Positions 3,362-36,103 of a stretch of DNA of 36,103 bases are shown piece by piece. The notes below the pieces were generated by a model. It was not told the DNA's origin. It did no database searches and worked only from the letters and a program-made list of their open reading frames with translations. The stretch covers positions 1 through 36,103 of the forward strand of contig CAYHXB010000004.1 of NCBI GenBank assembly GCA_964360535.1, given 5' to 3'. The stretch comes from an uncultured Candidatus Saccharibacteria bacterium. GTDB lineage: Bacteria > Patescibacteriota > Minisyncoccia > UBA6257 > 2-01-FULL-56-20. Positions within the stretch are counted from its first letter, which is position 1; each line of letters starts with the position of its first letter. A program made the position numbers and the translations under genes.

Positions 3362-3808
3362 ATGGCAGCCGTAGACGATATAAAGAAACTTCGCGATGTT
3401 ACGGGAGCAGGCGTTATGGAGTGCAAGCAGGCAATTGCCGACAGCAAGGGAGATTTTGACGCAGCCATCAAGCTTATCCACGAACGCGGACTCGCAAAAG
3501 TGGAAAAAAGAGCCGGAAGGGAAGCCGGAGCCGGTTTGATACAATCATACGTGCATAATGAAAGAATAGGCGTAATTCTTGATGTCCGCGCCGAAACCGA
3601 TTTCGTGGTGCGCTCGGAGCCCTTCAAAAAGCTCGCCAAGGACCTCGCTATGCAGATAGCGGCCGCAGGCCCGGCCAATGTTGAAGAACTTTTGAAACAG
3701 CCGTATATTAAAGACGAGTCCAGAACCGTGGACGAAATAATAAAGTTGACCATTGCCCAGGTAGGCGAAAATATACAAGTAAAGACATTTTCTCGTTTGG
3801 AATTGTAA
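3362..3808 (+). CDS. tsf: Elongation factor Ts, unusually short form (148 aa)
   Basis: N-terminal UBA-like motif IKKLRDVTGAGVMECKQAI, then AGREAGAGLIQSYVH, AETDFV and MQIAA. Lies downstream of rpsB as in the conserved rpsB-tsf operon. Confidence 0.85.
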   Translation: MAAVDDIKKLRDVTGAGVMECKQAIADSKGDFDAAIKLIHERGLAKVEKRAGREAGAGLIQSYVHNERIGVILDVRAETDFVVRSEPFKKLAKDLAMQIAAAGPANVEELLKQPYIKDESRTVDEIIKLTIAQVGENIQVKTFSRLEL

Positions 3809-4172: not shown

Positions 4173-4198
4173 AGACCCCTATTTCTGCTTTTATTTTG

Positions 4199-4282
4199 TG
4201 CGTCGGGTAGGATTCGAACCTACGAAGCCCATAGGGCGATAGATTTACAGTCTATTGCGATTGACCACTCCGCCACCGACGC
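4199..4282 (-). tRNA. tRNA-Tyr (anticodon GTA), long variable arm, CCA not encoded
   Basis: Manual cloverleaf on the minus strand: acceptor GCGTCGG/CCGACGC; D arm GCGG-AGTGGTCAA-TCGC; anticodon arm ATAGA-CTGTAAA-TCTAT; 15-nt variable arm; T arm GTAGG-TTCGAAT-CCTAC; discriminator A. Confidence 0.9.
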
Positions 4283-4286
4283 ATTT

Positions 4287-4391
4287 TAAAATTATCTTTC
4301 TCTTACCGTTGGACATACCTGCGTAGCCCATTGGCCACCCACCGCCGTAGGCGGGGCCCCGCTTTAGCGGTGGTCCGCCACCGACGCATTT
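4287..4391 (-). repeat. Duplicated tRNA-Tyr 5' fragment plus a GC-rich double-hairpin element
   Basis: The 18-nt TCCGCCACCGACGCATTT occurs at 4269-4286 (the real tRNA 5' end plus 4 nt of leader) and again at 4374-4391. The spacer between the copies contains element 4331-4373, which is nearly identical in reverse complement to 12788-12829. Confidence 0.7.
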
Positions 4392-4474
4392 AACTATCGG
4401 GCTTAATTATTGTCCGAATCTGGAGTTTTTTCAATACCACCACTAGCAGGGCTACTTTATGATATAATTTCAAT

Positions 4475-5341
4475 ATGACAATGAGCACCATAGAAAAAAC
4501 AAATCTCTTTACGCGTAAAACCAAAACCAAAGCAGACGTGATTTTGGGAGATTGTTTAGAGGTGCTTAAAACTATGCCCGACGGTAGCATTGATCTTATA
4601 GTGACTTCGCCACCATATGCCGATCAGCGTAAAAAGACATATGGCGGTATCAATCCAGACAAATATGCTGAATGGTTTTTGCCGATTACCAAAGAATTGC
4701 TTCGCGTTATGCGGCCGACCGGCACGTTCATACTCAATATCAAAGAAAAAGTGGTTGATTGCGAGCGCCATACCTACGTAATGGAGCTAATTATTAACAT
4801 GAGAAAGCAGGGCTGGTTCTGGACGGAAGAGTTTATTTGGCACAAGAAAAACTGCTACCCTGGCAAGTGGCCGAACCGTTTCCGTGATTCATGGGAGCGT
4901 ATACTTCAATTCAACAAACAAAAAAATTTCACTATGTATCAAGAAGAAGTAATGGTGCCGATGGGGAACTGGGCGAAAACGCGACTCAAGAATTTAAGCA
5001 ATACAGACAAGACAAGAGACAACTCAAAAGTCGGTAGTGGTTTCGGTAAAAACGTTTCAAGGTGGGTTGGACGAGATATGGCGTATCCTACGAATGTGCT
5101 TGTCATGGCAACAGAGACATCTAATAAACAACACAGCGCGGTATTTCCCAAGGAACTTCCAGCATGGTTTATCAAACTCTTCACGAAACCCGGTGATGTC
5201 GTCCTTGATCCGTTTCTCGGAGCGGGAACTACTTCCATTACCGCATTTGAACTTGATCGTAGTTCAATTGGTATTGAAATAAAAGAAGAATATTATAATC
5301 TGGCTATTAAAAATATCCGAGAACAAACGACGCAATTATGA
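4475..5341 (+). CDS. Beta-class amino DNA methyltransferase (N4-cytosine or N6-adenine), type II R-M
   Basis: Catalytic motif IV TSPPY is N-terminal and the AdoMet motif I DPFLGAGTT is C-terminal. This is the permuted order typical of the ParB-less N4/N6 MTase family (N6_N4_Mtase). Confidence 0.85.
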   Translation: MTMSTIEKTNLFTRKTKTKADVILGDCLEVLKTMPDGSIDLIVTSPPYADQRKKTYGGINPDKYAEWFLPITKELLRVMRPTGTFILNIKEKVVDCERHTYVMELIINMRKQGWFWTEEFIWHKKNCYPGKWPNRFRDSWERILQFNKQKNFTMYQEEVMVPMGNWAKTRLKNLSNTDKTRDNSKVGSGFGKNVSRWVGRDMAYPTNVLVMATETSNKQHSAVFPKELPAWFIKLFTKPGDVVLDPFLGAGTTSITAFELDRSSIGIEIKEEYYNLAIKNIREQTTQL

Positions 5342-6102
5342 AAAAACTAAATTATAAAAAATTAAACACCTTTATCGTTTCCGATGTCATTCGGCCATTT
5401 TATGAAATACGATTTGAAGCTTTAAAAGTTATAAAATTAAAAAACGTAGCAAAACGAAAGAACCCCTATCTTTTCAAAGCAAAAAACGTAGAAACCGCTG
5501 GCGACCTTGCAAAGAATATTCTTGATGCGTTTTTGTCGTCGCAAGAAGAAACGATATTTGGCGATCTTATGGAAAACCTTGCTATCAATGTGTGCAAACA
5601 AGTTTTTAAGGGTAAGAAAGCAGAGCAAGCTAAATATCGTAGCATAGACCTAATCTTCGAACGCGATGGGAAAATATACATTGTTGGTATCAAATCTGGA
5701 CCAAATTGGGGCAATAGCGACCAAGTCAACGCAATGAAACGTAATTTCGCGATTGCAAAAAAAATTATTCGCGCAGCACGCGGTAAAAAAACCGAGATTA
5801 TTGCCGTTAATGGATGTATTTATGGCCGCGATAATCAAGCATACAAGATTGATAAGAAAAATAAAGACCAAAATTATTACAAGCTATGTGGACAATCCTT
5901 TTGGGAACTTGTTTCTGGCGACAGTCAACTTTATAAAACAATTATCCAGCCACTTGATGCTGAAGCGAAAAAACGCGACCAGACATTCAAAGACCTCTAT
6001 GCGGAAAAAATAAATGAAATGACAAAAGATATTATAGAACTTTTTTACACCAAAAGTCGCCTTGATTGGGACAAGATTGTAGAATACGTTTCTAAGAAAT
6101 AG
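5338..6102 (+). CDS. Putative type II restriction endonuclease partner of the methyltransferase
   Basis: ATGA-coupled to the methyltransferase and similarly AT-rich. A PD-(D/E)xK-like stretch is possible (IDLIFERDGKIYIVGIKSG). The family assignment was not verified. Confidence 0.5.
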   Translation: MKKLNYKKLNTFIVSDVIRPFYEIRFEALKVIKLKNVAKRKNPYLFKAKNVETAGDLAKNILDAFLSSQEETIFGDLMENLAINVCKQVFKGKKAEQAKYRSIDLIFERDGKIYIVGIKSGPNWGNSDQVNAMKRNFAIAKKIIRAARGKKTEIIAVNGCIYGRDNQAYKIDKKNKDQNYYKLCGQSFWELVSGDSQLYKTIIQPLDAEAKKRDQTFKDLYAEKINEMTKDIIELFYTKSRLDWDKIVEYVSKK

Positions 6103-7234: not shown

Positions 7235-7292
7235 ACTTTATAACTTTTCCGCCAGAGGCGGATCCGCCTTCGGCGGAAAACTTTATAACTTT
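7235..7292. repeat. 30-nt double-hairpin palindrome (TCCGCC-N3-GGCGGATCCGCC-N3-GGCGGA) flanked by a 13-bp direct repeat
   Basis: Element at 7248-7277. ACTTTATAACTTT occurs at 7235-7247 and again at 7280-7292. A second copy of the element lies at 797-826 inside mnmA. Confidence 0.7.
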
Positions 7293-10656: not shown

Positions 10657-12492
10657 ATGAAAAACTTTTCAAAAAACATCCTCTGGGGGGTTCTGACGTT
10701 GATTCTCGTTTCCATGGTATTCTCGGAATTTTCCGGGACTGCGGCTAAGCCGCAGGAATTGAGTTTGAGCCAGCTGACCGACAAAATAAACGCCGGACAG
10801 GTTACCGAAATCGGCATAAACGGAGAAGAACTCAAAATAAAACTTGCTGACGGCACCCCCGCCATTTCCAAAAAGGAAGCGGAAGCAGGCCTGACTCAAT
10901 CGCTTAAAAATCTCAATGTAAATTCCGAGGCATTACAGAAAGTGAAACTTGCCGTGGAAAGCCAGTCGGGCGCCAACTACTGGGCTGCAATTCTCATTCC
11001 TACACTTTTGCCTATTTTGATTATCGGCGCCATTTTCTGGTTCATGCTCCGGCAGGCTAAAACGGGCGTCAATCAGGCGTTCAGCTTCGGGCGTTCCAAT
11101 ATCCGCCTTTCCGGTTTCGGCAAGGAGAAAGTCACATTCAAGGATGTTGCCGGACTTAAGGAAGCCAAAGAAGAGCTTCTTGAGATAGTCCAGTTCCTGA
11201 AGGACCCGAAAAAGTTTTGGGATTTGGGGGCGAGAATCCCGCGCGGAGTTCTTTTAATGGGACAGCCGGGCACGGGCAAGACATTGATGGCGCGCGCCGT
11301 CGCTGGCGAGAGTAATGTGCCCTTCTTTAATATTTCCGCTTCGGAGTTCGTTGAAATGTTCGTCGGCGTCGGAGCTTCGCGCACGCGTGACGCTTTCGCC
11401 ACCGCAAAAAAAGCGGCCCCCTCAATTCTTTTCATTGATGAAATTGACGCAGTCGGACGCCAGCGCGGAGCCGGACTCGGCGGAGGCAACGACGAACGTG
11501 AGCAGACGCTTAACCAGATTCTTGTGGAATTGGACGGGTTTGAGCGCGACACGAGAGTTATTATTCTCGCCGCCACCAACCGTCCCGATATTCTGGACCC
11601 GGCGCTTTTACGTCCCGGCAGGTTTGACCGCAGAGTTGTTCTTGATTTGCCGGACATAAAAGACCGCGAAGAAATTTTGAAAATCCACAGCAAAGGCAAA
11701 ACGCTCGGCAAGGACGTTGATTTGAGAAAATTGGCCGTCAGGACGCCGGGATTTTCGGGAGCAGACCTCGCGAACCTGATGAATGAAGGCGCCATTCTTG
11801 CCGCGCGCGCCAACAAAAAAGCCGTAGGACAAGAAGAACTCCAGGAAGCGATTGAGAAAGTCATGCTCGGGCCCGAAAGAAAAAACCGCGTCATTACGGA
11901 CAACGAAAAGAAAATAACCGCTTATCACGAAGGCGGACACGCGCTCGTGGCGGCGTCCATCAAGGGCTCGGACCCGGTGCAGAAAATTTCCATCATCAGC
12001 AGGGGAATGGCCGGCGGATACACGATGAAACTTCCGCTTGAAGAAGAAAATCTCCGCACCAAGACGCAGTTCCTGAATGACCTTGCAATGATGATGGGAG
12101 GGTTTGTTTCCGAAAAAATGACTTTCGGCGACGTTTCCACCGGCGCCTCAAACGACCTTGAGCACGCCTCCGAGCTTGCCCGCCACATGGTCACCAGATA
12201 CGGAATGAGCGAAAAACTCGGCCCGATGACTTTCGGCAAAACCCAGGGACTTATCTTTCTGGGCAGAGAGATGACCACGGAGAAAAATTATTCTGAAAAA
12301 ATGGCGGAGAAAATAGACGAAGAAACCAGAGTGTTCATTGACCGCGCTTACGCCGTTGCCCAAAAAGTTTTGCTCTCCAATAAAAAAGCGCTTAAAAAAA
12401 TCGCCGAAACCCTTATGGAAAAAGAAACGCTGGAAGGCGAGGAATTTTACAATTTGCTAAAACCATTTAGAATAAAGCCCGTAGTAGTTTAG
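10657..12492 (+). CDS. ftsH: ATP-dependent zinc metalloprotease FtsH
   Basis: N-terminal TM helices; Walker A GQPGTGKT; Walker B ILFIDEID; [22 protein letters not shown]; zinc site HEGGH. Confidence 0.95.
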
Positions 12493-12566
12493 AGTTTGGA
12501 ACTTGGAATTTAGAGCTTGGTTATTGGTGGCTTTTTGACCAAATACCAAGTTCCAATAACCAATAA

Positions 12567-12853
12567 ATGGGCGTATAGCTCAATGGCACCCTCCAAAGGC
12601 GGGCAGGGAGCTCCCGAGCTTACAGTTTGGAACGAGGCAGGTGTAAAAAAGCCAACCTTTTTTATTTCTGCCGAGTGAACAAATTGATGAAATGCGAAGC
12701 ATTTCATATACCTTGAGGATCGGAATATTGAATTTTGGGGTGGGCCAGGAGTAGTATTTACAAGTAAACAATGGGCCAGTAGCTTATCACCGCTATAGCG
12801 GGACCCCGCCATCGGCGGTGGGTGGCTAAAGCAGAAATTAGAATATTAAACAT
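12567..12853 (+). repeat. tRNA-Ile 5' pseudo-fragment followed by an about 265-nt hairpin-rich spacer containing the shared GC double-hairpin element
   Basis: 12567-12588 (ATGGGCGTATAGCTCAATGGCA) matches 12852-12873 at 21 of 22 positions. The D-stem 3' strand is missing after the first copy, so it is not a functional tRNA. Element 12788-12829 matches the reverse complement of 4331-4373. Several strong hairpins are present, for example ATGAAATGC-GAA-GCATTTCAT. Confidence 0.65.
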
Positions 12854-12925
12854 GGGCGTATAGCTCAACGGCAGAGCACGAAGCTTATACCTTCGCGGTT
12901 CTAGGTTCGAATCCTAGTGCGCCCA
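12854..12925 (+). tRNA. tRNA-Ile with genomically encoded anticodon TAT (UAU)
   Basis: Manual cloverleaf: acceptor GGGCGTA/TGCGCCC; D arm GCTC-AACGGCA-GAGC; anticodon arm CGAAG-CTTATAC-CTTCG, which places TAT at positions 34-36 (12886-12888); T arm CTAGG-TTCGAAT-CCTAG; discriminator A. No CCA is encoded. Confidence 0.85.
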
Positions 12926-12969
12926 CATTAGATTTTGTTAGTGCGGAAGCGCGTTACAAAATCTTATGT

Positions 12970-13006
12970 CCCGCAGAATGCGGGGCAGATCCCGCCATCG
13001 GCGGGG
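12970..13006. repeat. Tandem GC-rich tri-loop hairpins (CCCGCA-GAA-TGCGGG and CCCGCC-ATC-GGCGGG)
   Basis: Read directly. The architecture is the same as the elements at 12788-12829 and 4331-4373. Confidence 0.6.
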
Positions 13007-13020
13007 CTAAAATTTATAAG

Positions 13021-13554
13021 ATGAAAAATTTCAGTTTGAAATTCGTTGATATCTTAATCGGCATAGTGCTCGGCCTTGGTTTCCAATGGTGGCCATCGCT
13101 TCAATATCCATGGCAATACGCGGCTTTTATTTTTGTTTATTTTGACATTGTCGATTACTGGATTGATTATTCTCCCTCGTTAAAGAAATTCCCGCCCAAA
13201 AGGGAAATTGACGTTATGCTTGATGTCGCGATTATGTTCACGCTTTTTCTGTACATATATGCCACTCAACTTACGTCGGTTTATTTTTTGACCGTTTTCG
13301 TCATTTGGAAAATTTTGGATTACTTCTGGCTTTTGAGTTCCAGGCATGAATATCTTCCAACCGGTACGGATAAAATTTATGTTAATACATGGATGCAGTT
13401 TGACCTGATAGAAGCAGTTATTGCGGTGGTATTGATTGGAGGAGCCATTCTATTCAATATAGAATCTTTAATTATCATTATCGCGTTCATTGTTTGCAGG
13501 ATTATCGTGCGGGTATTGGCGAGTATCCGCTATAAAAAAATCCATTTTACTTAA
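13021..13554 (+). CDS. Hypothetical multi-pass membrane protein
   Basis: Five or six hydrophobic segments in an AT-rich gene. No recognisable family. Confidence 0.5.
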   Translation: MKNFSLKFVDILIGIVLGLGFQWWPSLQYPWQYAAFIFVYFDIVDYWIDYSPSLKKFPPKREIDVMLDVAIMFTLFLYIYATQLTSVYFLTVFVIWKILDYFWLLSSRHEYLPTGTDKIYVNTWMQFDLIEAVIAVVLIGGAILFNIESLIIIIAFIVCRIIVRVLASIRYKKIHFT

Positions 13555-15109: not shown

Positions 15110-15436
15110 ATGAACTTACTCAAAGTAACAAAAGATAAGGCAATAAAAGCACTACTGGGAAAGGCGACTGTTCCAAGCGGGCTTTATGAGCTTAATAAAT
15201 ATTTCAGGCAGTATGGTCCGATTGAATTTAAGCATCATAAAGATGATGGTCTTATAATTTCTGTTAGTACCAATTTTAAATATGGAAGCATAATTGCCCA
15301 CGGACGCAACTTGGAAGAGCTTGATAAAAACGTGAGAGACGCGATTTTGACTTCATTTGAAGTTCCTTCTTCCTATAAAAAGGAAGCCGCTATAGTTAAG
15401 GAGGGGGAACGGCAGAACGCCTATGCCCTCGCTTAG
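15110..15436 (+). CDS. hicB: HicB-like antitoxin
   Basis: Size, position, and a 14-nt overlap with the hicA-like gene. The pattern G.Y.......G....HG.NLEEL..NVRDAI fits the HicB N-terminal fold. Confidence 0.55.
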   Translation: MNLLKVTKDKAIKALLGKATVPSGLYELNKYFRQYGPIEFKHHKDDGLIISVSTNFKYGSIIAHGRNLEELDKNVRDAILTSFEVPSSYKKEAAIVKEGERQNAYALA

Positions 15437-15668
15437 TGAATTACCCGGAGAAATTAAGCAGAATCGTTTTTGTAAAGCCCTTAAAAGGGTAGGTTTTGAA
15501 ATTAATAAGGTGGGCGGAGATGGTAGCCATTTTAAGGCAATATGGCCAAGAAATCAGAAATCGGTAACTATACCTTACGATCTTCCTAAGCAAACATTAA
15601 AATATATTCTTAAAGAATTAGAAGAAATAAGCGGAGTTGATTGGAATCAAATTAAAAAAGAACTATAA
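15423..15668 (+). CDS. hicA: HicA-like (YcfA family) mRNA interferase toxin
   Basis: [22 protein letters not shown]...[19 protein letters not shown] matches the YcfA/HicA pattern (GSH, vTiP, gTl..IlkqaG). Confidence 0.7.
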
Positions 15669-15675
15669 TCTTCTC

Positions 15676-16705
15676 ATGGACCTCAAACAGGAACTGGCAG
15701 AACTCAAAACCGAACTTGGCCGCCTCGGCGGCCGTCTTTGACGTCGCCGGCAAGGAAAAACTGAAGAACGAAATTGAAGCCGAAATGTCAAAGGCGGATT
15801 TTTGGTCCGACAGAAAAAACGCCGACGAGAAAATAAAGATATTCGGCGAATTGGACAGCATCACGAAGAAATATCACGAAATAGAAAACGGACTCGAAAC
15901 ACTCGAAAAAAATTTCAACGAAGATTATTTTTACGAAATAAAAAGAAAATTCCGCCAGCTGGAACTGGAAGAACTTTTCAAAGGAAAATACGACAAATCG
16001 CCGGCGGTGATCTCGGTTTATCCCGGAGCCGGAGGCGAAGACGCGGGCGACTGGTCGCTGATGCTTTTTGATATGTACAAAAATTACGCTGTAAAGCGCG
16101 GATGGAAAGTCACGGTTCTGGACGACACTCCCAACCGCAGAACTTTGGAAATAAAAGGGGATTACGCTTTCGGATATCTCAAGGGCGAATACGGAGTTCA
16201 TCGCCTAGTCCGCGTTTCGCCGTTCTCGGCAAAACAATTGAGACATACATCTTTCGCGCTCGTTGAAGTCGCTCCCGTGCTTCCCGCAGTGGACGAATCA
16301 AAAATGGAAATTCCGGAAAACGATTTGAAACTGGAATTTTCGCGCGCCGGAGGGCCGGGCGGACAGAATGTGAACAAAGTGGAAACCGCGGTAAGAATCG
16401 TACACATCCCCACGGGGCTTGCGGCAGGTTCGCGCGCCGAACGCTCGCAGGAACAAAACCGGCAAAAGGCCTTGAGCTTGCTTAAAGGCAAACTCGTGCA
16501 ACTGATGGAAAAGCACAAGGTTGAGGAACTGGCCCATCTTCACGTAAATGTGAAGCCGGAATGGGGCAGCCAGATTCGCTCTTATGTTTTGAATCCCTAT
16601 AAGCTCGTCAAAGACCACAGGACGGAGGTTGAAACAACGCAGGTTGAGGATGTTCTGGCGGGAAATCTTGACCAGTTTATAGAAGCCGAAGTGGAAAAGT
16701 TATAA
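15676..16705 (+). CDS. prfB: Peptide chain release factor 2 with programmed +1 frameshift (join 15676..15738, 15740..16705)
   Basis: ORF0 ([21 protein letters not shown]) ends at CTT TGA C (15736-15742). The +1 frame continues DVAGKEKLK... and carries SPF (RVSPFSA) and GGQ ([15 protein letters not shown]). Confidence 0.92.
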
Positions 16706-23516: not shown

Positions 23517-23605
23517 TGTTATAATCAGTAGCGAGGAGTGAAGTGAAAGTTTAGTAATTTCCACTTCAGCCGAACGCCCTGATTAATGAAGCGGAGCTTC
23601 ATATA
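23517..23605 (+). promoter_or_regulatory. Pilus-associated structured repeat, copy 1 (extended -10 TGTTATAAT plus conserved hairpin module) upstream of pilB
   Basis: TATAATCAGTAGCGAGGAGT-[stem-loop]-AGCCGAACGCCCTGATTAATGA-[ATGAAGC-GGA-GCTTCAT]-ATAAT aligns with 28731-28812 and 28813-28901. Confidence 0.7.
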
Positions 23606-23624
23606 ATTAACCAAACATAAAACA

Positions 23625-28295: not shown

Positions 28296-28693
28296 CATTT
28301 TTTTGTAAAAACAAAGGCGGCTATATCGCCATAACTTCGGCAATTCTTATCAGCGCGATGATTCTTTTGGTCGTTTTTGTGATAAGCACCGGCTCTTTTC
28401 TCGCGCGGCTGGACATCTCCACAAGTTCTTTCAAAGAAAAAAGCTCGTCGCTCGCAAGAGCGTGCGTTCAAAAGGCAATTTTGAAGTTGTCCCAGAACGG
28501 CTCTTACGCCGGCAACGAAACGATTTCAGTCGCCAGCGACACATGCCAGATAGTTTCCGTCGTTGCCAGCGGCACAATCCAGAAAATCATTTCGACGCAG
28601 GGCCAATTCAGGTCGTCCTTTACCAATTTTAAAGTGACAGTCAGTTCTTCAACGCTCTTGGTTGCCGGATGGGAGGAGCTGGCTCATTTTTGA
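28292..28693 (+). CDS. Pilus-associated membrane-anchored protein (PilX/ComGG-like by position)
   Basis: N-terminal KGGYIAITSAILISAMILLVV helix without Glu at +5. Last gene of the pseudopilin run. Confidence 0.5.
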   Translation: MTFFCKNKGGYIAITSAILISAMILLVVFVISTGSFLARLDISTSSFKEKSSSLARACVQKAILKLSQNGSYAGNETISVASDTCQIVSVVASGTIQKIISTQGQFRSSFTNFKVTVSSSTLLVAGWEELAHF

Positions 28694-28727
28694 AAAAGCC
28701 CCTGTGGATAAAACCGCGCCTTATTTC

Positions 28728-28812
28728 TGCTATAATCAGTAGTGAGGAGTGGGATAAAAATTTATTAATTTTTATCCCAGCCGAACGCCCTGATTAATGA
28801 TGCGCAGCTTCA
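28728..28812 (+). promoter_or_regulatory. Pilus-associated structured repeat, copy 2 (extended -10 TGCTATAAT)
   Basis: Same conserved blocks as copy 1. The central stem is GGGATAAAAA / TTTTTATCCC, entirely different in sequence but still base-paired. Confidence 0.7.
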
Positions 28813-28901
28813 TATAATCAGTAGCGAGGAGTAAAGTGAAAATTTAACAAATTTTTACTTCAGCCGAACGCCCTGATTAATGAAACCTGCAAGGTTTCAT
28901 T
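28813..28901 (+). promoter_or_regulatory. Pilus-associated structured repeat, copy 3, in tandem with copy 2 and upstream of pilA
   Basis: Same conserved blocks. The central stem is AAGTGAAAA / TTTTTACTT and the 3' hairpin is TGAAACCT-GC-AAGGTTTCA. Confidence 0.7.
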
Positions 28902-28947
28902 AATTCAGTTTAATGGGAAAGGTCGAAGAATCATTGATTTACACAAC

Positions 28948-29394
28948 ATGAATTCAAAAAGAGGTTTTACCTTAATAGAGCTTTTGGTGGTAATCGGAAT
29001 AATCGCAATTTTGGCGGCTGTCGTTATTGTCGCTCTGAATCCGGCCAGGCAATTCGCCCAGGCAAGAAACACTCAAAGACAATCGAATATTCTTGCGATT
29101 CTTAACGCCATTGGCCAGAACATTGCTGACAACAAAGGAATTTTCACTTGCGCCGCCGGAGCCATTCCATCGTCGACAACCAAGATGGCAACTAGCACTT
29201 ACGATATCGCCGGATGTTTGGTTCCGACCTATCTGCCGAATATGCCATTTGACCCGTCGGCTGCGGGCGCTCATTGGACAAGCGTTTCGGACTACGATTC
29301 TGGCTACGAAGTGTCAGTATCAACAAGCACCAGCAGGGTGACTGTTAACGCGCCAGCTACGGAGCTTAGTCAGGTTATTTCACTTACGCGTTAA
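28948..29394 (+). CDS. pilA: Type IV major pilin (PilA-like)
   Basis: The MNSKRG|FTLIELLVVIGIIAILAAVV cleavage/methylation motif, small size, and Thr/Ser-rich C-terminus. Confidence 0.85.
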   Translation: MNSKRGFTLIELLVVIGIIAILAAVVIVALNPARQFAQARNTQRQSNILAILNAIGQNIADNKGIFTCAAGAIPSSTTKMATSTYDIAGCLVPTYLPNMPFDPSAAGAHWTSVSDYDSGYEVSVSTSTSRVTVNAPATELSQVISLTR

Positions 29395-34183: not shown

Positions 34184-36103
34184 TTTTCAAAAAAGAGAAA
34201 GTGGTTGTTTTATCTCTCTTTCTGATAGTTTCTCTGCTCGGCCAGGGTCAGTTTGTTCCGAAGGCGGAAGCTGCCGTTGGTCCACTATGTTCAGGCCCGC
34301 TAGAAAGTTTTCCCATTCCAGAATTTATTAAAAGCACGGTTCGCGTAAAAAGCGTAGATTCGCGAACTTCGAAGGTTGACGTTACTTCATCCGGTTATGT
34401 GCAAAAAGCTAGATGTAAAAGTACGGTAATTGGGGGTTACAAACCAGTTGTCTACGCGGACGGCTATATATATTATGTTGCGTCGGGCCGGAAGTTTGAC
34501 GGCTCATTAGTAGGCGCAAAAAACTATAATTATAATAATGATGCTGATGCTATGCCGCCGAACTCTTCGTCCATAAATATAGCGCGAAACAGCAATATCA
34601 TTCATGTTACGCCGACAAAGTGTGTGAGTAGCGTAGATGAAGGCTTTCGGGATACCACTTCAAAAGTAGAATGCATTACTTACGGCTTGTCGGCGGACGG
34701 ACGTGTCGGAACGGCGCATTATGAGCGTGAAGAGAAGAGTGACGGATGGTGGACTGTTGTTGCGGCGATCGGACTAGCTGCGGTTGGGTTAAGTTTCGGA
34801 GTAGATTTAACGGGTATTTTAGGAGGTGTGATTGGTGAAGGAGGAGTAGCAATAGGCGCTATTGGCTTGCAGGAAATTGCCGTATCTGCAGTAACAACAT
34901 TAGGCAGTTCGGCTCTCACGTCTCTTGGCGGCGCGCCGTCGGTCGCAGGCGTCGGTTCATTGGCAATTATTGGCGCAGGAATCTCTGCTACTATCGCGAC
35001 AGCAATAAACGAAATTTCCCAAACAGCGCCGCTTGACACAGTCGAAGAATCCATAAGCGGCACAGGCGCGGCCGCCAGCGTCGGAACCTGGACCTGGTCT
35101 CCTATACCGGAGGCGCCGCCGACACCCGTATCGCCGCTGCCGAATTGTTCTTTTTTGTCTGACCCGGATTTAATAACCAAAGGCCAATCGTCGCTTCTCG
35201 TATGGGGATGTCAAAATGTTGATTCTTGCTCGATAGATAATGGAATTGGTACGGTCCCTGCAGTAAGCGGTAAAAACTTTAGTGTAAGTCCCGCTCAAAC
35301 AACAACATATAATCTCTCCTGTACCGGTCCTGGGGGAAGCGCTTCGTTTCCCGCAACTGTCAATGTTACTCCAGCTCTTCCGGACCTTACTACAGGAAAT
35401 ACGACCATAGTTCCTTCTCCCGGCGCGACTGGACAAAGCGAATCATTTTCCGCCACAGTTTCAAATATCGGCACCGGCAATGCAAACAATTCCTTCCCGA
35501 GCTTCTTCCAGATAACGAATGAAGCTAAGTCGCAAGTTGTCGCGACCACGAGCGCCACTTCAATATCGTCCCTTGCCGCGGGCGCTTCGATTACCGTCTC
35601 CGGCTCATATATATTCGGTTCTCCTGGCGCCTACAACGTCCGCGCATGTGCGAATTATACAGACATGTGGTCCGGCTCTACCATTACGGAAACCGATATG
35701 AATAACAACTGCGGCGGCGCGGGCGCGTATACAGCCGTGACAATATCTGCACCCGCCACGCCGACTTGTCAGGATACCGCTGCTAATAACTTCAATGGGG
35801 CGTTGCCATGCGTTTATGCGCCAACGCCACCTCCCGTCAACGGCGGCTGGAGCGACTGGAGCGCTCGTGCCACTGATTGCGGAAGAACCGGGACGCAGAC
35901 GCGTGCCTGCACCAATCCCGCTCCTGCGGACGGCGGAGCCGATTGTTCAGGGCCGAGTTCGCAAACTTACAGCACGTCCGCGTGTCCCGTCAACGGCGGC
36001 TGGACTGGCTGGAGCTCCTGCAGCGTGACTGCTTGCGGAAGAACCGGGACGCAGACGCGTACTTGCACCAATCCCGCTCCTGCTAACGGCGGCGCGAGTT
36101 GTT
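34180..36103 (+). CDS. Large surface protein (partial; 3' end outside the window): signal/TM, Gly/Ala-rich hydrophobic region, Ig-like and CARDB-like domains, tandem thrombospondin type-1-like repeats
   Basis: I translated frame 1 from ATG 34180 to base 36102 by hand and found no stop codon (641 codons). The ORF is not in the supplied track because it never terminates in the window. It begins MIFKKEKVVVLSLFLIVSLLGQG and ends ...NGGWSDWSARATDCGRTGTQTRACTNPAPADGGADCSGPSSQTYSTSACPVNGGWTGWSSCSVTACGRTGTQTRTCTNPAPANGGASC. Confidence 0.85.
   Translation, partial: MIFKKEKVVVLSLFLIVSLLGQGQFVPKAEAAVGPLCSGPLESFPIPEFIKSTVRVKSVDSRTSKVDVTSSGYVQKARCKSTVIGGYKPVVYADGYIYYVASGRKFDGSLVGAKNYNYNNDADAMPPNSSSINIARNSNIIHVTPTKCVSSVDEGFRDTTSKVECITYGLSADGRVGTAHYEREEKSDGWWTVVAAIGLAAVGLSFGVDLTGILGGVIGEGGVAIGAIGLQEIAVSAVTTLGSSALTSLGGAPSVAGVGSLAIIGAGISATIATAINEISQTAPLDTVEESISGTGAAASVGTWTWSPIPEAPPTPVSPLPNCSFLSDPDLITKGQSSLLVWGCQNVDSCSIDNGIGTVPAVSGKNFSVSPAQTTTYNLSCTGPGGSASFPATVNVTPALPDLTTGNTTIVPSPGATGQSESFSATVSNIGTGNANNSFPSFFQITNEAKSQVVATTSATSISSLAAGASITVSGSYIFGSPGAYNVRACANYTDMWSGSTITETDMNNNCGGAGAYTAVTISAPATPTCQDTAANNFNGALPCVYAPTPPPVNGGWSDWSARATDCGRTGTQTRACTNPAPADGGADCSGPSSQTYSTSACPVNGGWTGWSSCSVTACGRTGTQTRTCTNPAPANGGASC
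35833..36103 (+). repeat. 153-bp (51-codon) tandem repeat encoding the TSP1-like modules
   Basis: CCCGTCAACGGCGGCTGG starts at 35833 and again at 35986. TGCGGAAGAACCGGGACGCAGACGCGT...TGCACCAATCCCGCTCCTGC is repeated almost exactly. The second unit is cut by the window end. Confidence 0.9.

Follow-up and report, generated by a model that had tools for sequence, protein, structure and literature searches.

The tRNA-Ile locus downstream of ftsH

The stretch of DNA analysed here, 36,103 nucleotides (nt) of an uncultured Candidatus Saccharibacteria bacterium and hereafter called the window, contains over its whole length two tRNA genes recognized by ARAGORN and Rfam, tRNA-Ile(UAU) and tRNA-Tyr(GUA) (Table 1). 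This study is concerned with the segment that separates the first of these genes from ftsH. A preliminary description of the segment had reported that the beginning of tRNA-Ile is copied upstream of the gene with one mismatch, and this is borne out: ATGGGCGTATAGCTCAAYGGCA has exactly two sites, 12567-12588 and 12852-12873, which are identical at 21 of 22 positions (the exception is a T/C difference), while shuffled sequences are expected to contain none. We consider it likely that 12567-12873 as a whole has no function and is a composite scar, which arose when the one tRNA-Ile(UAU) gene located after ftsH was overwritten repeatedly.

Read from 5' to 3', the segment consists of the dead 5' half of the native gene, remnants of a second allele, and an intact live copy preceded by a short leader of its own. 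The loops of the dead copies are disrupted by structured repeats of two kinds, GC hairpins and an 84-nt element flanked by TA, which we call E. Both kinds reappear in related genomes at the boundaries of larger inserts. These inserts contain a whole replacement tRNA gene, which sits either inside hairpin A of E (tRNA-Ile) or beside a gene for a GIY-YIG protein similar to UPF0213. These relatives (loci designated by L numbers) were retrieved via their FtsH proteins, and the window was read against them; the FtsH protein of the window is 83-91% identical to proteins from groundwater assemblies, and the order ftsH to tRNA-Ile is kept in many relatives. Within the Patescibacteria, the genome is placed near Candidatus Liptonbacteria.

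That the region is a chimera of co-occurring strain alleles could be suspected from the coexistence of several alleles in the same aquifer samples, and from a depth of 200-290x over the tRNA as compared to ~5x in the flanks; this excess is explained by the tRNA sequence being shared by many organisms. The stretch is rebuilt without differences by contigs from three independent public groundwater runs (a single contig spans 12267-12924 in run X1, and another 12306-12809 in run X4), these per-run assemblies give all the junctions, and complex loci recur identically across samples and projects (L151 = L152 = L162, L154 = L155, L158 = L159). We therefore reject a chimera, which of all the explanations considered is the least probable.

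Contrary to the earlier suggestion that the upstream copy lacks the rest of the cloverleaf, the 3' strand of the D stem, both strands of the anticodon stem, and the loop bases CTTA and TAC can be recognized further downstream, so that 12569-12722 (copy 1) is, judging from its sequence, a nearly whole dead tRNA-Ile rather than a 20-nt fragment. Copy 1 begins where the intact gene of L156 begins (window 12442-12588 is 83% identical by BLAST to L156 4286-4440). Its D loop is interrupted by an 18-nt GC hairpin that is missing from the homologous copy of L153 (..CAACGGCAGAGCTCCGAGCTTACAA), while a near-identical hairpin occupies the same tRNA position of a different allele in L163 and a longer insert is present in L151. 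The continuation at 12607-12622 aligns with the copies of L153, L151 and L154 and with the loop CTTATAC of the live gene. The 3' piece that follows E shows 16/16 identity to the live allele of L154 and L157, and it is because of this origin from another allele that the two strands of the anticodon stem fail to pair; with the inserts removed in silico, ARAGORN finds no tRNA in copy 1 of the window.

Beyond copy 1, the TGGGCCAG direct repeat noticed earlier is accounted for by a leader-like stretch and a 13-nt piece similar to a tRNA 5' end. Copy 2 (12773-12833) corresponds to nt 1-26 of the allele GGGCCAGTAGCTTAGTGGCTAAAGCA, which is live in L154, L157 and L160: its start is the start of the live tRNA-Ile of these three loci, its remainder matches GTGGCTAAAGCA of the live L154 allele, and in L109, where the same piece directly follows ftsH, the remainder reads GCGGCCTAAAGCA. 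Similarity to other mosaics extends across these boundaries, with 89% identity between 12616-12786 and L154 4237-4407 (171 nt), and 94% between 12685-12786 and L163. The leader and start of the live gene (12838-12877) are 97.5% identical to L153 4491-4530, and the leader also precedes the nested tRNA of L158 described below. Live tRNA-Ile is probably transcribed from this leader, given the -10-like hexamers just upstream of the gene; a promoter and terminator scan of 12400-13100 gave nothing above chance, and the minus-strand open reading frame (ORF) at 12510-12812 matched no Pfam family.

Table 1. Coordinates of the parts of the tRNA-Ile and tRNA-Tyr loci and of the other E copies in the window.
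Feature	Position	Strand	Evidence or remark
ftsH	10657-12492	+	Pfam FtsH_ext, AAA, Peptidase_M41; conserved upstream neighbour of tRNA-Ile(UAU)
Native ftsH-tRNA spacer and leader	12493-12568	+	Homologous to the L156 spacer entering intact tRNA-Ile
Dead tRNA-Ile copy 1, nt 1-20 (fragment of the preliminary description)	12569-12588	+	Acceptor 5', D-stem 5', D loop
18-nt GC hairpin CCCTCC-AAA-GGCGGG-CAG, at the D-loop end of copy 1	12589-12606	+	
Copy 1 continued: D-stem 3', anticodon-stem 5' CCGAG, loop bases CTTA	12607-12622	+	
E (84 nt, 12623-12706) and duplicated TA (12707-12708), in the anticodon loop of copy 1	12623-12708	+	
Copy 1, 3' piece: TAC, anticodon-stem 3' CTTGA, GGATCG	12709-12722	+	GGGCCAG-type allele
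Leader-like GAATATTGAAT.., 13-nt tRNA 5'-like piece GGGCCAGGAGTAG (12742-12754), spacer	12723-12772	+	
Dead tRNA-Ile copy 2, nt 1-14 of the GGGCCAG allele	12773-12786	+	
35-nt GC double hairpin TCACCGC-TATA-GCGG G A CCCCGCC-ATC-GGCGGTGG, between nt 14 and 15 of copy 2	12787-12821	+	
Copy 2 remainder: rest of D loop and D-stem 3' GTGGCTAAAGCA (nt 15-26)	12822-12833	+	
Leader of the live copy GAAATTAGAATATTAAACAT	12834-12853	+	-10-like hexamers
Live tRNA-Ile(UAU)	12854-12926	+	ARAGORN; Rfam tRNA 68.8 bits; 97% identity to the L156 gene
Second E copy, 17 nt upstream of a pilB-like ATPase gene	23518-23608	+	78.4 bits; Pfam T2SSE
Two tandem E copies upstream of a pilin gene (28948-29394)	28731-28906	+	Pfam N_methyl
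Live tRNA-Tyr(GUA)	4198-4282	-	ARAGORN and Rfam
Tyr leader/spacer, GGGCTACGCAGGT (variable-arm/T-stem, L164-type allele) and D-loop remainder GTGGCCAAT	4283-4338	-	
35-nt GC double hairpin between nt 14 and 15 of a dead tRNA-Tyr copy	4339-4373	-	
Leader AAAT and nt 1-14 of the older tRNA-Tyr copy	4374-4391	-	Native upstream flank retained

Two kinds of repeats in the dead tRNA copies

The hairpins that had been pointed out in the spacer do exist, and two of them belong to the structure of E. The helices of this element are P1 (CAGTTTG/CAAATTG), the long hairpin A (12638-12676), and hairpin B ATGAAATGC-GAA-GCATTTCAT (12687-12707). In an alignment of nine copies analysed with RNAalifold, compensatory changes affect 17 of the 32 pairs, against 2-3 in controls in which the pairing partners were slid; 95% of the cells are paired, as compared to 41-48% with partners slid by 1-3 columns, and none of 500 shuffles reaches the observed values. 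The covarying stems suggest that selection acts on the structure of E and not on a sequence bound by a protein. This structure can be assigned to the strand shown, as the conserved G-U pairs of E would turn into C-A in its complement. With a covariance model built for E, the copy at 12623 scores 102.8 bits. Only tRNA was detected by Rfam in the whole window at gathering thresholds, and relaxing the search to E<=10 in 12400-13100 and 28660-28980 returned tRNA and chance matches, with no family for E.

The three remaining copies of E in the window are located at pilus genes, where each begins inside a TGnTATAAT box (TGTTATAAT in the case of the copy upstream of pilB). The junctions are CTTA/E/TATAC in tRNA-Ile, GTTA/E/TATAAT at pilB and CTTA/E/TAAAAC in a prfB fragment of L161: every copy has TA on both sides, although these junctions are explained just as well if E enters 3' of TTA and nothing is duplicated. 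Terminal inverted repeats are lacking, as the ends of E (CAAT.. and ..TTCA) are not inverted copies of each other and the left end pairs internally as P1. Contigs of the public runs contain no joints that skip E at the pilus sites, where only other E copies were found. L161 contains, at 3539-3660, a duplicate of the 5' part of prfB that extends over the frameshift region and is split by E between two TA; the real prfB lies ~1 kb downstream, after an ORF of 159 amino acids (aa), such that a protein gene displays the plan of fragment, insert and intact gene. The last codons of ftsH (12447-12456, also in relatives) hold TTACAATTTG, which is the left junction string of E (CTTACAATTTGG); this may be due to chance.

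These features bear on the proposal, made in the preliminary description, that the spacer is an unrecognized structured non-coding RNA. The proposal could apply to the 84 nt of E, in which the covariation is strong and no Rfam family is matched, but not to the rest of the region. One could go further and regard E (12623-12706) as a functional, regulatory RNA of the tRNA-Ile and pilus genes, acting as a 5' leader, a processing stalk or a small intron. Along with the double changes in its pairs and the strand-specific G-U pairs, this would explain why all copies are co-oriented with the downstream gene, and why in L059, L158, L151 and L017 a live tRNA is enclosed by the paired arms of E, in the manner of a leader-trailer stem. 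It would not explain the TA flanks seen in every context, nor the presence of E in tandem, in the anticodon loop of a dead tRNA, and in the duplicated prfB fragment of L161; moreover, the halves of the carrier tRNA do not pair except in L059, and features of the known intron classes were not found in E. We regard a dedicated functional RNA as unlikely, although it is the most serious of the alternatives. As a TA-flanked repeat present in multiple copies, E has at least as likely a mobile origin, and its properties fit those of a non-autonomous mobile repeat that uses TA or TTA sites.

The second kind of repeat connects the two tRNA loci of the window. A 36-nt GC pattern matches at 12790-12825 on the plus strand and at 4335-4370 on the minus strand, with 0 matches expected, and the similarity between the two sites reaches 60 nt at 80%; the element that ends the tRNA-Ile spacer is thus shared with the tRNA-Tyr locus, as had been stated. 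The mirrored layout of the latter is also recovered, since AAATGCGTCGGTGGCGGA is repeated, on the minus strand, at ~4374-4391 and at the start of the gene, and the flank of the Tyr fragment, GATTCGGACAATAATT, matches the DNA upstream of a simple tRNA-Tyr in L164. From its sequence, the Tyr locus of the window can be described as a short form of the arrangement of fragment, GC element and tRNA. Relative to L164 1-370 the tRNA-Tyr segment (4198-4440) is inverted. Two other neighbours were recorded on this side of the window: a remnant of the C-terminus (..DSDNN*) of an upstream 119-aa gene, which adjoins the Tyr fragment on the minus strand, and a restriction-modification pair similar to EcoO109I (N6_N4 methylase and RE_EcoO109I, 4475-6102) next to the broken copy. 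The EcoO109I site, RGGNCCY, coincides with the center of the GC element (GGGRCCC), perhaps fortuitously.

A scan in which the stems were fixed and the loops left free located the GC element in at least 70 metagenome loci, mostly intergenic; the tallies given here refer to 72 loci, that is 70 from metagenomes and the two window copies. A tRNA lies within 450 nt, in the direction from fragment to gene, for 19 of the 72 elements, and in 11 the upstream flank clearly matches the 5' part of that tRNA. The common layout consists of the leader and nt 1-14 of the tRNA, the GC element, nt 15 to ~25, either a short spacer or an insert of 299-322 nt, and the intact tRNA. When the GC element was deleted together with 0 to 5 of the bases next to it at either end, a full tRNA was restored in 0/72 cases; hence the element is not an intron of a working gene. 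It was not found in viral contigs.

Related motifs are abundant in the window, where CCCGCCNNNGGCGG has 19 matches against 0.46 expected, a 40-fold enrichment of motifs of the type CCCGCC-NNN-GGCGG. A 30-nt double GC hairpin, TCCGCCCAAGGCGGATCCGCCCCGGGCGGA, occurs at 796-825 in frame inside mnmA (725-1927, tRNA thiolase), adding SAQGGSAPGG to an otherwise canonical N-terminus, and a near-identical 30-nt hairpin is found at 7247-7276, between ackA and a phosphoketolase gene. In general, the GC hairpins behave like mobile palindromes, or small palindromic repeat families.

Empty sites, nested genes and GIY-YIG cassettes in related loci

Comparison with orthologous tRNA-Ile loci revealed plain genes at this spot in some relatives and other mosaics elsewhere. 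Empty sites, in which ftsH is followed by a short spacer and an intact tRNA-Ile, are present in L156, L161 and L164 with the allele GGGCG.A, which is the type of the live window gene, and in L157 and L160 with the GGGCCAG allele. Window 12442-12588 and 12852-12927 fall by BLAST on overlapping positions of L156, and the window is therefore equivalent to an empty site to which an insert of 263 nt and a duplication of 22 nt have been added. At the Ile site, filled alleles can be paired with empty ones in two instances, the window with L156/L161/L164, and L109 with L157: in L109 the copy 2 module comes right after ftsH and precedes a different live allele, where L157 has the intact allele.

As for the earlier idea of an element that inserts into a tRNA gene and restores it, the empty sites (L156) speak for insertion and restoration, but what was inserted is a mosaic rather than one element, made up of the 18-nt GC hairpin, E, pieces of the second allele, the 35-nt double hairpin and the leader. 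Two further details of the idea differ from what is seen. In related loci the incoming DNA brings a whole tRNA gene instead of a 5' end alone, and there is no fixed insertion point ~20 nt into the gene, because the breaks vary among the D, anticodon and T loops. Distinct mosaics of five or six alleles occupy the site in L151/L152/L162, L153, L154/L155, L158/L159 and L163; L152 and L153 encode an identical FtsH protein next to differently broken tRNA-Ile copies. Both observations indicate that the locus turns over quickly.

The import of a whole gene is clearest in the nested cases. In L158 and in the distant L059 the covariance model shows E split at the tip of hairpin A by an 82-nt insert, which is a complete tRNA-Ile. 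In L059 the whole unit of E and tRNA lies in the anticodon loop (CTTA/../TAC) of another tRNA-Ile, whose outer halves pair perfectly, and deletion of the unit in silico restores a clean outer gene. L151 also has an 82-nt tRNA inside hairpin A, with an only rough restoration of the outer gene; L151 and L017 follow the same nested plan in a more decayed state. These cases indicate that a unit of E with a full tRNA-Ile landed in resident tRNA-Ile genes more than once.

At other tRNA genes the insert encodes a protein. The 299-322 nt inserts of L086, L099, L101, L115, L126 and L141 encode GIY-YIG proteins of 80-93 aa (Pfam E-values from 1e-12 to 1e-16), whose closest solved structure is UPF0213 BH0048, and GIY-YIG ORFs are found in the corresponding inserts of L098, L105, L110 and L142. 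Overall, 11 of the 72 GC elements have such an ORF within 200 nt. The reading frame of these cassettes ends at or inside the tRNA, and the replacement tRNA that accompanies them is tRNA-Ser, Tyr or Lys. The break is in the anticodon loop in L126, L105 and L098, the order is mirrored in L142 (tRNA, ORF, GC element, 3' fragment), and at several loci the old pieces flank the full tRNA gene on both sides. In L141 (4560-5110, minus strand) a GIY-YIG gene and a full tRNA-Lys are placed between overlapping older tRNA-like pieces (nt 1-56 and nt 17-76), in both of which the anticodon arm is replaced by the hairpin CCCCGAAAGCTTTCGGGG; a small circle integrated by a single crossover would be expected to leave such an arrangement. 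The polarity of the displaced pieces is general: for 129 tRNAs, 14-mers from the 5' end recur 13 times upstream and 14-mers from the 3' end recur 8 times downstream, always on the same strand, with 0 recurrences in six control classes.

A direct repeat of a tRNA segment around foreign DNA is the textbook signature of integration at an att site, and the tRNA-Tyr locus is adjoined by the restriction-modification pair mentioned above. The region might accordingly be the remains of integrase islands or prophages that entered tRNA genes and were later deleted. Integrases, as Williams is said to have described in 2002, target the anticodon loop, the T loop or the 3' end and replace the 3' part of the gene. 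Here the duplicated part is the 5' end with its leader (nt 1-20 of Ile, nt 1-14 of Tyr), the break points differ among the three loops, and the inserts measure only 70-320 nt. No tyrosine or serine recombinase was found in the window or in the related loci examined, the restriction-modification pair lies outside the repeat pair, and the sister loci hold a GIY-YIG gene or a whole tRNA instead. An origin from att sites thus appears very unlikely.

No mobile element would be required if the segment had been duplicated locally in tandem on a single occasion, by replication slippage or unequal crossing-over, and had drifted since; such an event can yield short direct repeats, and the window contains no mobility enzyme. 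This explanation is at odds with the recurrence of the architecture, in the same polarity, at two tRNA genes of the window and, on unrelated contigs, at over 20 tRNA genes of several identities, and with an insert that holds a different allele of the gene together with repeats found elsewhere. A simple non-recurrent duplication, which the preliminary description had named as one of the outcomes that would overturn it, is largely refuted by this recurrence and by the mixing of alleles, and we give it hardly more credit than an assembly artifact.

Three further features of the window were noted. Inverted repeats of 35 nt (32455-32489/33524-33558) and 29 nt (32520-32548/33501-33529) bracket a segment of ~1 kb, whose ORFs match no Pfam family and which could be invertible or mobile. 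The end of the window (35832-36103) has direct repeats, 76 nt (88% identity) and 31 nt in length and ~155 nt apart, which are probably part of a repetitive coding region. Downstream of the tRNA-Ile region, a HicA toxin gene with an upstream 108-aa partner ORF (15110-15668) precedes prfB (15716-16705), and the same pair is present in L157.

Interpretation and relation to known systems

These results can be interpreted as the product of small selfish cassettes that would break a resident tRNA gene in one of its loops and would survive because of the working copy that they bring along. Such cassettes may spread through the repair of nuclease-induced breaks (homing) or by recombination between strains; the old halves would then decay and gather hairpin repeats, and the copies in the window would be inert relics that have lost any nuclease gene. 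That the breaks are always in loops, across many tRNA identities, suggests as a guess that structure rather than sequence is recognized.

Several points count against this interpretation. No remnant of a GIY-YIG gene was detected in the spacers of the window, either by tblastn or by six-frame searches with hidden Markov models of the family, whose scores were all negative, so that the link to the cassettes is limited to the shared architecture and the GC element. When every ORF of appreciable size in the window was searched with Pfam, neither a nuclease nor a transposase or integrase was identified. The mechanism, with its steps of cleavage, excision and transfer, is one that we infer. The pattern used to retrieve the GC element had fixed stems, so that it gives no readout of stem covariation, and it may also bias the fraction of loci associated with tRNAs. 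The uniform orientation of E and its conserved G-U pairs would fit a functional RNA leader as well. Finally, the order of events at the Ile locus lacks a unique reconstruction, with the recent-looking copy 1 upstream of the older copy 2.

More tentatively, and with somewhat less than even confidence, we propose that Patescibacteria carry an undescribed class of selfish overwrite cassettes for essential tRNA genes, of which the window contains two decayed members. The minimal unit would consist of a full tRNA gene combined either with a GIY-YIG gene limited to the catalytic domain and a GC double hairpin, or with the arms of E. It would break a resident gene of the same identity in a loop, possibly recognized as a DNA hairpin, and install its own copy, leaving the old halves as flanking wreckage; loss of the cassette would then be impossible without loss of the tRNA.

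The closest precedent is SegB of phage T4, a free-standing GIY-YIG homing endonuclease encoded, with no intron, in a tRNA gene cluster; its target includes the conserved stem-loop motif of the tRNA T arm, and it drives the inheritance of itself and of the neighbouring tRNA genes (PMC2330249). The likeness lies in a GIY-YIG gene among tRNA genes. SegB, however, is a multi-domain, site-specific enzyme, while the cassette proteins, known from sequence, are UPF0213-type catalytic domains of 80-93 aa; at the cassette loci the two parts of the broken resident gene persist on either side of a complete substitute, and no GIY-YIG gene is present in the window. Integrative elements of tRNA genes also enter a tRNA gene, restore it from element DNA and displace a piece that becomes a direct repeat, but they are kilobases in size, have an integrase gene and exchange the 3' part. 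The loci described here have inserts of 70 to 450 nt, which can bring a whole tRNA; displacement affects 5' pieces or both halves, and no integrase was found.

Small inserts in structured RNA genes have been reported from the same bacterial group. In the Candidate Phyla Radiation (CPR), rRNA genes are interrupted at the tips or bases of stem-loops by inserts, many of which are uncharacterized and shorter than 200 bp, while some, including non-intron ones, encode GIY-YIG proteins; that study concerned rRNA genes only, with no mention of tRNA (PMC11270868). rRNA tolerates such inserts, whereas the tRNA copies interrupted here are dead and are superseded by a new one. Our search of the literature found no account of GIY-YIG genes or nested copies at tRNA genes of CPR bacteria. 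Archaeal tRNA genes likewise have introns at non-canonical positions (PMC4090602). These resemble the present inserts in being small and located in the D, anticodon and T loops; the archaeal genes are functional and spliced at bulge-helix-bulge motifs by the archaeal endonuclease, whereas removal of the GC element from the loci studied here never regains a tRNA (0/72), and the halves mostly do not pair. Non-canonical tRNA introns and split tRNAs are known in Thermoproteales and Nanoarchaeum.

With regard to the repeats, the GC hairpins are short, GC-rich in an AT-rich genome, multi-copy and intergenic, like the palindromic families represented by REP/BIME, the Rickettsia palindromic elements, the Neisseria Correia elements and the GC clusters of yeast mitochondria, and the in-frame hairpin of mnmA resembles the Rickettsia elements within protein genes. 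They differ in sequence, and no RAYT/HUH transposase was found by Pfam in the window; we know of no report that these families are recurrently placed in the loops of tRNA fragments next to GIY-YIG genes. E can be compared with the palindrome-associated elements derived from IS200/IS605 and with TA-targeting miniature inverted-repeat transposable elements (MITEs), which it resembles in its size (~85 nt), lack of an ORF, strand-specific hairpins, fixed orientation and TA (TTA) junctions. The lack of terminal inverted repeats sets it apart from MITEs of the IS630/mariner type; as for IS200/IS605, neither TnpA nor TnpB is present, and the hairpin geometry differs from that of IS608.

For annotation purposes, the region is to be read as debris followed by one good tRNA gene and not as a new RNA gene, while E stands out as a clean structure, supported by covariation, for which Rfam has no family. 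As a whole, the locus family looks like a new form of target-restoring mobile DNA. In these streamlined bacteria, very small mobile DNAs equipped with a substitute copy would repeatedly target single-copy tRNA genes, following a gene-drive-like logic known so far mainly from integrases, at 3' ends, and from the homing endonucleases of phages. GIY-YIG proteins that consist of the catalytic domain only and are related to UPF0213 are abundant but of obscure role; as nucleases of tRNA cassettes they would gain a testable one. The hairpin repeats, located in the loops of dead tRNAs, in frame within a gene and near promoters, may offer a way to study the spread of repeats in genomes that are nearly devoid of classical transposons.

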